A stretch of DNA of 32,000 nucleotides from Sinorhizobium meliloti. Lineage in GTDB: Bacteria; Pseudomonadota; Alphaproteobacteria; Rhizobiales; Rhizobiaceae. The stretch spans positions 30,001-62,000 of the forward strand of contig NZ_JAGIOS010000004.1 of assembly GCF_017876815.1 (NCBI RefSeq), in the 5' to 3' direction. Below, in pieces: positions 28,577 to 30,556 of the stretch (its first letter is position 1; each line of letters begins with the position of its first letter). Made by a program: the position numbers and the translations under genes. The notes under the pieces were generated by a model that was given only the letters and a program-made list of their open reading frames with translations, had not been told where the DNA came from and ran no database searches.

Positions 28577-29230
28577 TCATGTGTCAGTACCCTGCAGAAT
28601 GTCAGTTCCGGGCTGATGCGGCGACGTGACGCCGAGAATCAACCAAAAAGCGCAAAATACTAAAAGCGCTGCGGCAACAAATTCCACCATGTTCCTGTGC
28701 CATCGTTGCGAAACCAGAGCCGAGGCCTGCCGAGCAACCGCCGATAGGCTGTAGAACCAGCATGCAGAGGCACCTAGCGCACCTGCAATGAACAGCATTT
28801 TGGAGGTGCCCTGATGTGGCGCAGCGGCCGATCCGAGAATGACGACGGTTTCCAGCAATGCAAGCGGGTTCAAGAAAGAAAGCAATAAACCTCGCCTGAT
28901 GAGTCCGTTTTCTTCATAGACATTGGAATTCAGCTCCAAGTGAAAATCACTCGATGTTCTAGTGCGCTGGACGGCACGAAACGCGAGCATCAGCAACATT
29001 ACAGCGGTGCCAATTGTCAAAATGAGCATGACACTTCTGTTGAGTACGATCAGGCTTCCCAGCCCCCAGGCCCCAAAGGTCACAAGAATAGCGTCGCAAA
29101 GCACGAACACCGAAGCCAGGAGGAAAGTCGGCCTCCCCAGTGTACCGATCCTCAATATTTCCGTATTCTGCGGACCTATGGAAACGATGAGCCCTATGCA
29201 CAAGAGGAACCCGCTATATAAGGCTGACAT
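28577..29230 (-). CDS. LysE/ArgO family basic amino-acid exporter
   Basis: 217-aa hydrophobic ORF with the N-terminal SIGPQN motif typical of LysE/ArgO. Its ATG overlaps the kamA-like stop by 17 nt. Confidence 0.85.
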   Translation of the reverse strand: MSALYSGFLLCIGLIVSIGPQNTEILRIGTLGRPTFLLASVFVLCDAILVTFGAWGLGSLIVLNRSVMLILTIGTAVMLLMLAFRAVQRTRTSSDFHLELNSNVYEENGLIRRGLLLSFLNPLALLETVVILGSAAAPHQGTSKMLFIAGALGASACWFYSLSAVARQASALVSQRWHRNMVEFVAAALLVFCAFWLILGVTSPHQPGTDILQGTDT

Positions 29231-30341
29231 TGTCTCTCCACAGCATTATTTCTAAGTTTCCTGGCACATCAAGCTCGGCGGGAAAGTCCGGATAGGCGAC
29301 CGACTTTCCATCGCGTTTGAATGTTGCCACGCCAGCATTTAGATCGTACTCGGCCATATCTTCACGCCTCACTTTTCCAACCATCGTGTCCATGACGAAG
29401 CGGGTCGAGTTGATCCAAGAAGGGCTGAACCAATTAATCCTCTCAATTATGCCGATCAACCGAGCAAGGTTGATACGGAATGGAGCCGAAAAATTAATTG
29501 GGTCAGGAATGAAAATCGATAGGTTTCGGATTCCAAGCTGATCTAGCTGTTCCAGATGCCGAATAAGCACGACATGATGATCATTAATCTGCCGCAATAT
29601 TGGGAATTGGTTATAGCATCGGATCCCGGCTTTGCGGATCTTCGCGATAGCTTCCTTTACATCGTCGCAAACCTCATACGGGTGTGTGAGGTGAAAGACG
29701 AGGCGAACATCTGCCGCCGACAGAAGTTCTAGCTTCCTCTCATCGATGATGAGCTGAGGATTATAGCTAATTGCTTTGGTGTGAATTCGTATTGACCGAA
29801 TATTGCGATGCGCTTTAATGACCTCGAATATTTTCGCCAAGGATGAGGCCGAGAGCGTCATCGGATCACCTCCGGATAAAATTACTTCCTCCGCATCCGT
29901 GTGGGTGTCGAGATACCCAGACAGTCGTTCGACCGAATTTGTGAACATATTACGCTCTGAGTGTTGATGCTCTGATAAAACATCCTGGCGGAAGCAGTAT
30001 TGGCAATGCGAGACACATGTGGATGTCGGCATGAATAGGATGCGATCACGGTATTTTTGGATGATGTTGCCCGTTGTGTCTGGCGGCATGTTGACCCTGT
30101 CATCAACAAAGTCAGGAACCTCGCCGGGTGCCCGTATTTTGAGGCGCTCGTTCGTGGGATAAACCATACGATGGAGGGGACCTTCGGTATGGCCAAGGTG
30201 CTTAATTTCGTCGTTTACTTTCCGTTTAAAGAACGGTGAGACTTTAATCGGCAGCAAACCCTCCCGTTCTCGCAATACCTCAAACGACTCATTCACTATC
30301 CCCTGCCGCTGCGGGTTTGTTCTCAACGGTTCATGTTTCAT
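29214..30341 (-). CDS. KamA-family radical SAM aminomutase (lysine 2,3-aminomutase-like)
   Basis: 375-aa ORF: YRDRILFMPTSTCVSHCQYCFR (CxxxCxxC), VILSGGDPMTL, RIHTK. This is the family pattern of KamA/EpmB-type enzymes. Confidence 0.85.
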   Translation of the reverse strand: MKHEPLRTNPQRQGIVNESFEVLREREGLLPIKVSPFFKRKVNDEIKHLGHTEGPLHRMVYPTNERLKIRAPGEVPDFVDDRVNMPPDTTGNIIQKYRDRILFMPTSTCVSHCQYCFRQDVLSEHQHSERNMFTNSVERLSGYLDTHTDAEEVILSGGDPMTLSASSLAKIFEVIKAHRNIRSIRIHTKAISYNPQLIIDERKLELLSAADVRLVFHLTHPYEVCDDVKEAIAKIRKAGIRCYNQFPILRQINDHHVVLIRHLEQLDQLGIRNLSIFIPDPINFSAPFRINLARLIGIIERINWFSPSWINSTRFVMDTMVGKVRREDMAEYDLNAGVATFKRDGKSVAYPDFPAELDVPGNLEIMLWRDNVSLI

Positions 30342-30556
30342 TTCCTACCCTCATTGTTCCCATGCGGTGCTATCGCGAGACAGGCTTTTGCGCGGCCGAC
30401 ACGCTCTTCAATCAGTGAGGATTCAATGGACCAGAGGACCCGATGCAACGTTTCAAGGTCAACCGACGGAGGCGATTTCCCTCCTGGTGATTGTTCGCCA
30501 TCTCTCAGTGTTGAGTCTTCCAAGATTACGTCTTCGCGAAACATCAATCCATCCAT
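30338..30556 (-). pseudogene. 72-aa stub carrying the N-terminal motif of HMGL-like synthases (isopropylmalate/homocitrate synthase family)
   Basis: MFREDVILEDSTLRDGEQSPG..., then about 45 aa that fit the family only weakly. Its TGA overlaps the kamA-like ATG (ATGA). Full-length family members are over 350 aa. Confidence 0.4.

Follow-up and report, generated by a model that had tools for sequence, protein, structure and literature searches.

The minus strand of a 32,000-nucleotide (nt) stretch of Sinorhizobium meliloti DNA (here called the window, whose positions serve as coordinates) carries two overlapping genes: one for a 375-amino-acid (aa) radical S-adenosylmethionine (SAM) enzyme of the KamA type, and one for a 217-aa carrier of the LysE/ArgO family. 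The window belongs to contig C4, a 229.5-kb plasmid with a GC content of 0.602, in a 7.34-Mb genome of four replicons. From sequence we predict a reaction and a substrate, outward transport and a role for the product, and hypothesize with moderate confidence that the two genes form a foreign, horizontally acquired module that makes and exports a beta-isomer of a basic amino acid. The substrate of the enzyme would be a basic L-amino acid, either arginine or lysine or something closely similar, whose amino group would be shifted from the alpha carbon to C3, and the translationally coupled carrier would then expel the resulting beta-amino acid. Because radical-SAM enzymes are oxygen-labile, we would expect the enzyme to be active chiefly where oxygen is scarce, for example in nodules.

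In Pfam the enzyme matches Radical_SAM (E 4e-11) and Fer4_12 only. Among NCBIfam models those of the KamA group rank first, all with scores below their cut-offs: behind the general family model TIGR00238 come EpmB (TIGR03821, the second-best match, 134.9 bits against a cut-off of 369.3), AblA-like-2 (114 against 396), AblA (TIGR03820, 102.9 against 525.4), BlsG (TIGR04468, 98.3 against 600) and glutamate 2,3-aminomutase (TIGR04368, 90 against 650). Its sole sequence match in the PDB is KamA of Clostridium subterminale (2A5H, E 3e-17), and an AlphaFold2 model built on 25 family members (mean predicted local distance difference test score, pLDDT, 86.5) finds the same entry first (E 3.5e-20, template modelling score 0.66), the next structural matches being generic radical-SAM enzymes at about 1e-5. 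The cysteines C109, C113 and C116 of the cluster motif CVSHCQYC (CxxxCxxC) and the SGGDP motif (S156 to P160) are invariant in 25 family members. K323 is likewise invariant, and in an L-INS-i alignment it coincides with the pyridoxal phosphate (PLP) lysine K337 of KamA and with that of all reference KamA-family proteins, which were taken from annotated plasmid records; the loop ahead of this lysine is two residues shorter than in KamA, and a pairwise HMMER alignment places K323 two residues off K337. By alignment the invariant R118 corresponds to the carboxylate-binding R134 of KamA, D280 (either D or E among family members) to D293, and the invariant D318 to D330; in KamA, D293 and D330 together hold the distal (epsilon) ammonium group of lysine. 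A histidine occupies the position of the KamA zinc ligand Cys268, and the family has motifs of its own (HCQYCFR, NQFP, HPYE and SIFIPDP). By fold, motifs and aligned residues the enzyme is a KamA-type radical-SAM/PLP protein, aminomutase-like, and probably a 2,3-aminomutase acting on a basic amino acid. Its residue set looks nearer to that of a lysine than of an arginine aminomutase, since BlsG, the arginine 2,3-aminomutase of the blasticidin S pathway, has a threonine at the position of D318.

Set beside known systems, the enzyme shares with KamA the cluster, the GGDP motif, the PLP lysine, the equivalents of Arg134, Asp293 and Asp330, and the fold, but identity is about 20%, and the window enzyme is 40 residues shorter, lacks the LAM_C region and the C-terminal zinc cysteines, has histidine for Cys268, scores below both the TIGR00238 and the TIGR03820 cut-offs and falls in a separate clade. 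BlsG resembles it as a KamA-family protein with a shortened loop before the PLP lysine, and the arginine-related neighbours of the enzyme's wider clade hint at a similar substrate; BlsG differs in its threonine, in its clade and in its setting, which is antibiotic clusters and not an exporter. EpmB (YjeK), which serves the beta-lysylation of elongation factor P (EF-P), is also a short KamA-family protein of similar length, but the window enzyme lies outside the EpmB clade and is not adjoined by efp or epmA.

A maximum-likelihood tree was built from 58 proteins: 34 members of the family, 11 references, a chromosomal paralogue and 12 further KamA-family sequences from a genome scan. All 34 members stand behind one branch of about 1.0 substitutions per site with 100% SH-aLRT support, apart from the EpmB, AblA/KamA, BlsG and AblA-like-2 groups. 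The references, ten with NCBI names and one unannotated, all come from plasmid records and include none for glutamate 2,3-aminomutase; nine of the 12 genome-scan sequences group with labelled EpmB. EpmB, AblA and BlsG were rejected as identities of the enzyme on hidden Markov model (HMM) cut-offs and the tree, and glutamate 2,3-aminomutase on its HMM cut-off. An earlier note on this DNA, written from its letters alone, had assigned the enzyme to the KamA family; a grouping with EpmB, which would have counted against its reading, is contradicted both by the EpmB score of the enzyme and by its separate, fully supported clade. A group of four rows (99% support) unites the window enzyme with that of Mesorhizobium LSJC280B00 (87-89% identity) and then with those of Photorhabdus temperata and P. 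asymbiotica (64-68%). The family as a whole is large, its best 120 clusters at 90% identity all having E below 1e-113, and these clusters come from Pseudomonadota, Myxococcota, Patescibacteria, Bacillota and Planctomycetota. Within any one group, however, it is rare: the enzyme had no match at E 1e-60 when 400 representatives of other Rhizobiaceae species were searched, none in 401 Enterobacterales genomes and none in 401 genomes taken at the level of the family Enterobacteriaceae. The searchable literature, outside which most subscription journals lie, yielded no characterised member of the family; on the tree and these searches, the clade is a separate and new branch of the KamA family.

The same genome has a second, chromosomal KamA-family gene (C1, 1036965-1037891; 256 bits, above the TIGR00238 cut-off), which is the paralogue in the tree and groups with AblA-like-2 proteins labelled 'lysine-2,3-aminomutase-like'.

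The carrier matches Pfam LysE (PF01810; E 8e-23, 81.3 bits against a gathering cut-off of 25.6), its residues 14-198 covering profile positions 3-190 of 193, and scores below the equivalog cut-offs of LysE (TIGR00948, 94.3 against 213.65 bits) and ArgO (NF006801, 69.2 against 298). Like LysE of Corynebacterium and ArgO of E. coli it is about 210 aa long and has the Pfam LysE domain over its whole length, but its gene overlaps an enzyme gene by 17 nt instead of standing under control of a LysG/ArgP-type regulator. From family and overlap we take it to be a LysE/ArgO-family exporter, translationally coupled to the enzyme gene, with outward transport as the predicted direction. At the 3' end of its gene the last seven codons (28577-28600) differ from those of all other rhizobial copies, whose products have 215 aa, which suggests a small indel there.

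The pairing of the two genes recurs in other genomes, a point on which the earlier note had made its reading depend. Six plasmids of S. medicae and S. meliloti and one of Rhizobium sp. 007 have it annotated with the 17-nt overlap, and the pair also occurs on one metagenome contig. On Photorhabdus chromosomes the two genes are adjacent, in the same order (five loci), with the identical 17-nt ATG-to-stop overlap in four species; in two assemblies the GenBank accessions of the two proteins are consecutive. Photorhabdus was reached through the exporter search, in which one genome matched, and the genus (16 species representatives) was then searched. It holds the closest non-rhizobial relatives of both proteins: those of the exporter are 51-53% identical (53% at E 3e-50), and after them the next match stands at 41% and all others at 38% or lower. 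That the overlap has been kept at 64-68% (enzyme) and 51-53% (exporter) protein identity across two bacterial classes argues strongly for inheritance of the genes as a single unit. Measured against the copies in S. medicae, S. meliloti, Rhizobium sp. 007 and Mesorhizobium, the enzyme gene has a ratio of nonsynonymous to synonymous substitution rates (dN/dS) of 0.16-0.23, with no stops in six copies, and the exporter gene has one of 0.26-0.29 against rhizobial copies; by these ratios selection on both genes is purifying in the three rhizobial genera compared. No paper describing a kamA-lysE pair was found in the same searchable literature (most subscription journals again lying outside it), in agreement with the earlier note, which knew of none.

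The base composition of the pair sets it apart from its surroundings, as had been remarked before. The 2.4-kb unit common to several plasmid contexts (Table 1) has a GC content of 0.508 against 0.602 for the whole plasmid; no 2.4-kb windows as AT-rich occur on replicons C1, C3 and C4, and on C2 they make up 0.15%. GC at third codon positions (GC3) is 0.54-0.59 in the unit versus 0.82 in the neighbouring argB paralogue. The unit is single-copy in the genome, and it is the only part of this region that Rhizobium sp. 007 shares by blastn.

The wider family offers a second association with transport. A sister clade at about 50% identity, found in Bradyrhizobium, Mesorhizobium and Rhizobium etli, always has the enzyme in a trio with a YqcI/YcgG gene and a gene for an amino-acid permease of the APC family. 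The trio resembles the window pair in that enzyme and transporter genes overlap (here by ATGA), and differs from it in that the permease is APC-type, YjeH-like and encoded upstream, and in having an extra gene of the guanidine N-hydroxylase family; it is as uncharacterised as the pair. The best model for the permease is that of the YjeH-type L-methionine/branched-chain amino-acid transporter (140 bits, below the cut-off), and YjeH is an amino-acid exporter in E. coli. As the partner is LysE-type in one clade and APC/YjeH-like in its sister, the enzyme family has been joined to an amino-acid transporter twice, through unrelated transporter families. The YqcI/YcgG protein of the trio weakly matches the GntA N-hydroxylase model, and one paper (PMC12866846) describes YqcI/YcgG proteins as haem-dependent guanidine N-hydroxylases of free arginine. 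The R. etli trio adjoins hemN and fixNOQP-type (cbb3 oxidase) genes. By its gene content the trio looks like an uncharacterised arginine-derived small-molecule module; and expression of the window unit under low oxygen would suit, by analogy, both the placement of the R. etli trio and the oxygen lability of the enzyme class.

More distant members (45-50% identity) adjoin agmatinase/arginase-family genes and ATP-grasp genes resembling D-Ala-D-Ala ligase, and one member, from Patescibacteria, has a GNAT gene downstream. Such arginine-related partners, met repeatedly, suggest that the substrate is arginine or one of its derivatives, and the Asp/Asp pair of the active site suggests lysine; as a rough division, we give an arginine-type substrate a little under half of the probability, lysine about a third and some other compound about a fifth.

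Several observations weigh against a make-and-export module. The enzyme fails the cut-off of the KamA family model itself (TIGR00238, 139.1 bits against 199.2), and a Pfam search found no LAM_C (PF12544) match in it. The exporter is kept in eight of the 16 Photorhabdus species and an intact enzyme in only two; in the other six the enzyme gene is internally deleted (one species), reduced to remnants (two) or gone without trace (three). In Mesorhizobium LSJC280B00 it is the enzyme that is intact, and a frameshift has broken the exporter gene, which ends near codon 100. No LysE gene adjoins the metagenomic relatives that are 56-65% identical; their neighbours are a CmlA-like diiron hydroxylase gene, an ATP-grasp gene or housekeeping genes. 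The DNA upstream of the pair is gene debris; no FixK box (TTGAT-N4-ATCAA, at most one mismatch) occurs anywhere in the window; no Rfam family, riboswitches included, was found upstream or within 28200-31400 at E 1; and promoter and terminator consensus matches are no commoner than in shuffled sequence. By these gene contents the enzyme-exporter link is loose, not obligate: of the 'hard-wired' coupling claimed in the earlier note, the conserved pairing holds, and the obligate link fails on the broken or lost enzyme genes of Photorhabdus and the exporter pseudogene of Mesorhizobium.

Some details of these loci may be recorded here. The internal deletion in the Photorhabdus enzyme gene looks in-frame (residues about 215-354), and the two remnants consist of the last 20-50 codons. 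The Photorhabdus pair lies between a DUF2170/PspA/DUF2491/DUF350/DUF1190/GSP_synth block and variable insect-toxin-like genes. In Mesorhizobium LSJC280B00 (locus L003, 8095-8900) the broken LysE gene is followed by a gene of the arginine-deiminase/DDAH superfamily. A metagenomic member at 58% identity (locus L099, 1655-2176) is followed by a CmlA-like diiron beta-hydroxylase gene, a context in the style of natural-product clusters.

Because the enzyme falls below the KamA-family cut-off and is without LAM_C, it could catalyse a different radical reaction, on an arginine-derived substrate, and the Sinorhizobium two-gene unit would then be a stranded part of what was a larger pathway, serving little or no function today; of the alternatives this one survives best, although we consider it unlikely. 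The long stem of the clade, the motifs peculiar to the family and the differing partner genes among clades agree with other chemistry, as the debris flanking the unit and the lack of a detected promoter agree with a stranded piece. All residues needed for PLP-dependent aminomutase chemistry are conserved, however, and both the purifying selection acting on the two genes in three rhizobial genera and the occurrence of just these two genes, by themselves, in Photorhabdus speak against a relic.

Detoxification is a further alternative, and one that we regard as improbable: the exporter would expel a toxic basic analogue derived from the host, such as canavanine from plants, and the aminomutase would convert it into a harmless beta-isomer. 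ArgO and LysE-family carriers do expel toxic basic analogues (ArgO exports canavanine), so the family assignment of the exporter fits; its persistence beside no intact enzyme in six Photorhabdus species argues that it has value on its own, and both hosts of the pair live inside eukaryotes. Against this, no regulator or sensor accompanies the pair, the surroundings of the enzyme's relatives look biosynthetic (genes of the N-hydroxylase, ATP-grasp and arginase families), and nothing ties Photorhabdus to canavanine. Least credible of all, and in our judgement very improbable, is beta-lysine made for internal use, whether for EF-P modification (EpmB-like) or for the osmolyte N-epsilon-acetyl-beta-lysine (AblA-like): the EpmB and AblA models are among the best NCBIfam matches by E-value and one distant member has the downstream GNAT gene, but the enzyme falls far short of both cut-offs (135 against 369 bits and 103 against 525), and the tree puts it in neither clade. 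Neither efp or epmA nor an acetyltransferase gene stands next to it; an exporter as partner is at odds with internal use; the chromosome of the genome carries an AblA-like-2 gene; and in all the Photorhabdus species searched there is another KamA-family gene, about 29% identical to the enzyme and taken as EpmB.

Upstream of the enzyme gene, and joined to it by a 4-nt overlap (ATGA), lies a third minus-strand open reading frame (ORF) of 72 codons, which the earlier note had described as an HMGL-like stub coupled to the operon; the comparisons show that it is not a working first gene of that operon. Residues 7-27, with the LRDGEQ motif, match the first 25 or so positions of four NCBIfam models for isopropylmalate synthase (IPMS) and NifV (E 0.001-0.01), and there is no Pfam match, hence no HMGL-like catalytic domain. 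The ORF differs from its S. meliloti counterpart by three nonsynonymous changes and one synonymous change; it is interrupted by an in-frame stop codon in Rhizobium sp. 007, has lost 9 nt in S. medicae, and in Mesorhizobium is left with about 20 codons, LRDGEQ gone, by a deletion of about 160 nt. In Photorhabdus tblastn found no counterpart, and the enzyme gene there is preceded by a gene for a Lipoprotein_11 protein or for Tus; no longer relatives of the ORF appeared at E 10. What is conserved is the first nine codons and the last ten, the latter with the ribosome-binding site of the enzyme gene. About 20 codons of the ORF are probably a true relic; as a whole, on these comparisons, it is not a gene and is drifting neutrally as debris. 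The idea of a full-length HMGL-like partner was likewise rejected: none occurs among the neighbours in 45 related loci, nor, by tblastn, in Photorhabdus, and none adjoins any family member examined.

About 170 nt further upstream accompany the pair in Sinorhizobium, Rhizobium sp. 007 and Mesorhizobium, and the homology ends near 30751 in both other genera. As the 3' end of a fixK-like gene thus travels with the pair in three genera, the truncations are older than the spread of the unit among rhizobial plasmids.

Table 1. Features of the two-gene unit and its surroundings (positions in the window, except for the trio loci)
Feature	Position	Strand	Basis or remark
KamA-family radical-SAM/PLP enzyme gene, 375 aa	29214-30341	(-)	profile search, alignment, tree, AlphaFold2 model
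LysE/ArgO-family exporter gene, 217 aa	28577-29230	(-)	Pfam LysE
Overlap of enzyme stop and exporter start, 17 nt	29214-29230	(-)	GGAGAG ribosome-binding site a few bases upstream of the exporter ATG
72-codon ORF, probable relic of an IPMS/homocitrate-synthase-like N-terminus	30338-30556	(-)	weak N-terminal NCBIfam matches
Upstream segment, intergenic DNA and 3' end of fixK-like pseudogene	30576-30751		blastn, 81-89% identity
Low-GC 2.4-kb unit common to several plasmid contexts	28380-30751		blastn; GC 0.508
Decayed fixK/CRP-family gene (flank)	30637-31197	(-)	FixK model, E 1.6e-15, 57 bits against cut-off 300
Possible IS110 transposase N-terminal fragment, between the pair and argB	28241-28459	(-)	tblastn
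argB paralogue	27352-28275		acetylglutamate kinase model, 255 bits
Trio loci of the sister clade (M. huakuii and R. etli plasmids, Bradyrhizobium)	L083 6748-10083; L084 6934-10065; L006 5740-9098; L012 5545-9083		YqcI/YcgG, APC permease and enzyme genes

The ORF coordinates given in the earlier note, the two overlaps and the CVSHCQYC, GGDP and LRDGEQ motifs were all recovered as described (Table 1). Its account of the flanks fared unevenly. The decayed fixK stands, as a pseudogene whose FixK score is far below the cut-off and whose cNMP_binding match is below its own; the IS110 fragment is doubtful, its first 27 or so codons being 70% identical to annotated IS110 transposases by tblastn with no match to any family model. 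The argB paralogue was considered as a member of the operon and rejected: the IS110-like fragment intervenes, its GC3 (given above) differs from that of the unit, and it is not common to Rhizobium sp. 007. About 40 N-terminal residues of its product lie outside the argB and AA_kinase models, and the gene recurs at 94% identity on many Sinorhizobium plasmids, adjoining an ACC deaminase gene in S. medicae and S. meliloti. A second low-GC stretch of the window (6000-10000; 0.50-0.53 in 1-kb windows) holds several long minus-strand ORFs.

Other KamA-family genes were met on plasmids. The S. medicae plasmid pSU277_3 has two different ones beside two biotin-carboxylase-like ATP-grasp genes, a candidate for a separate beta-amino-acid ligation cluster; and on the Klebsiella pneumoniae IncFII plasmid pC240_3 a long-branch member precedes a class I tRNA-ligase-family gene and a gene for a transporter of the major facilitator superfamily (MFS).

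The free beta-amino acids made by KamA-type enzymes serve as fermentation intermediates, osmolyte precursors, EF-P modifiers and antibiotic building blocks, and we know of none that is a secreted end product. We raise, tentatively and with less confidence than the module itself, the possibility that the clade is a new functional class, in which a product of the beta-arginine or beta-lysine type is made for secretion by symbionts of legumes and of insect-pathogenic nematodes, as a signal or antimetabolite directed at the eukaryotic host or at competing microbes, the coupling to exporters having evolved at least twice through unrelated families. Were the make-and-export reading wrong, the locus would be further decaying cargo on a rhizobial accessory plasmid. 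The clade recurs beside amino-acid transporters and arginine-modifying enzymes; were the reading right, it would add a new aminomutase specificity and a two-gene route to an extracellular beta-amino acid, one that moves between plant- and insect-associated bacteria.

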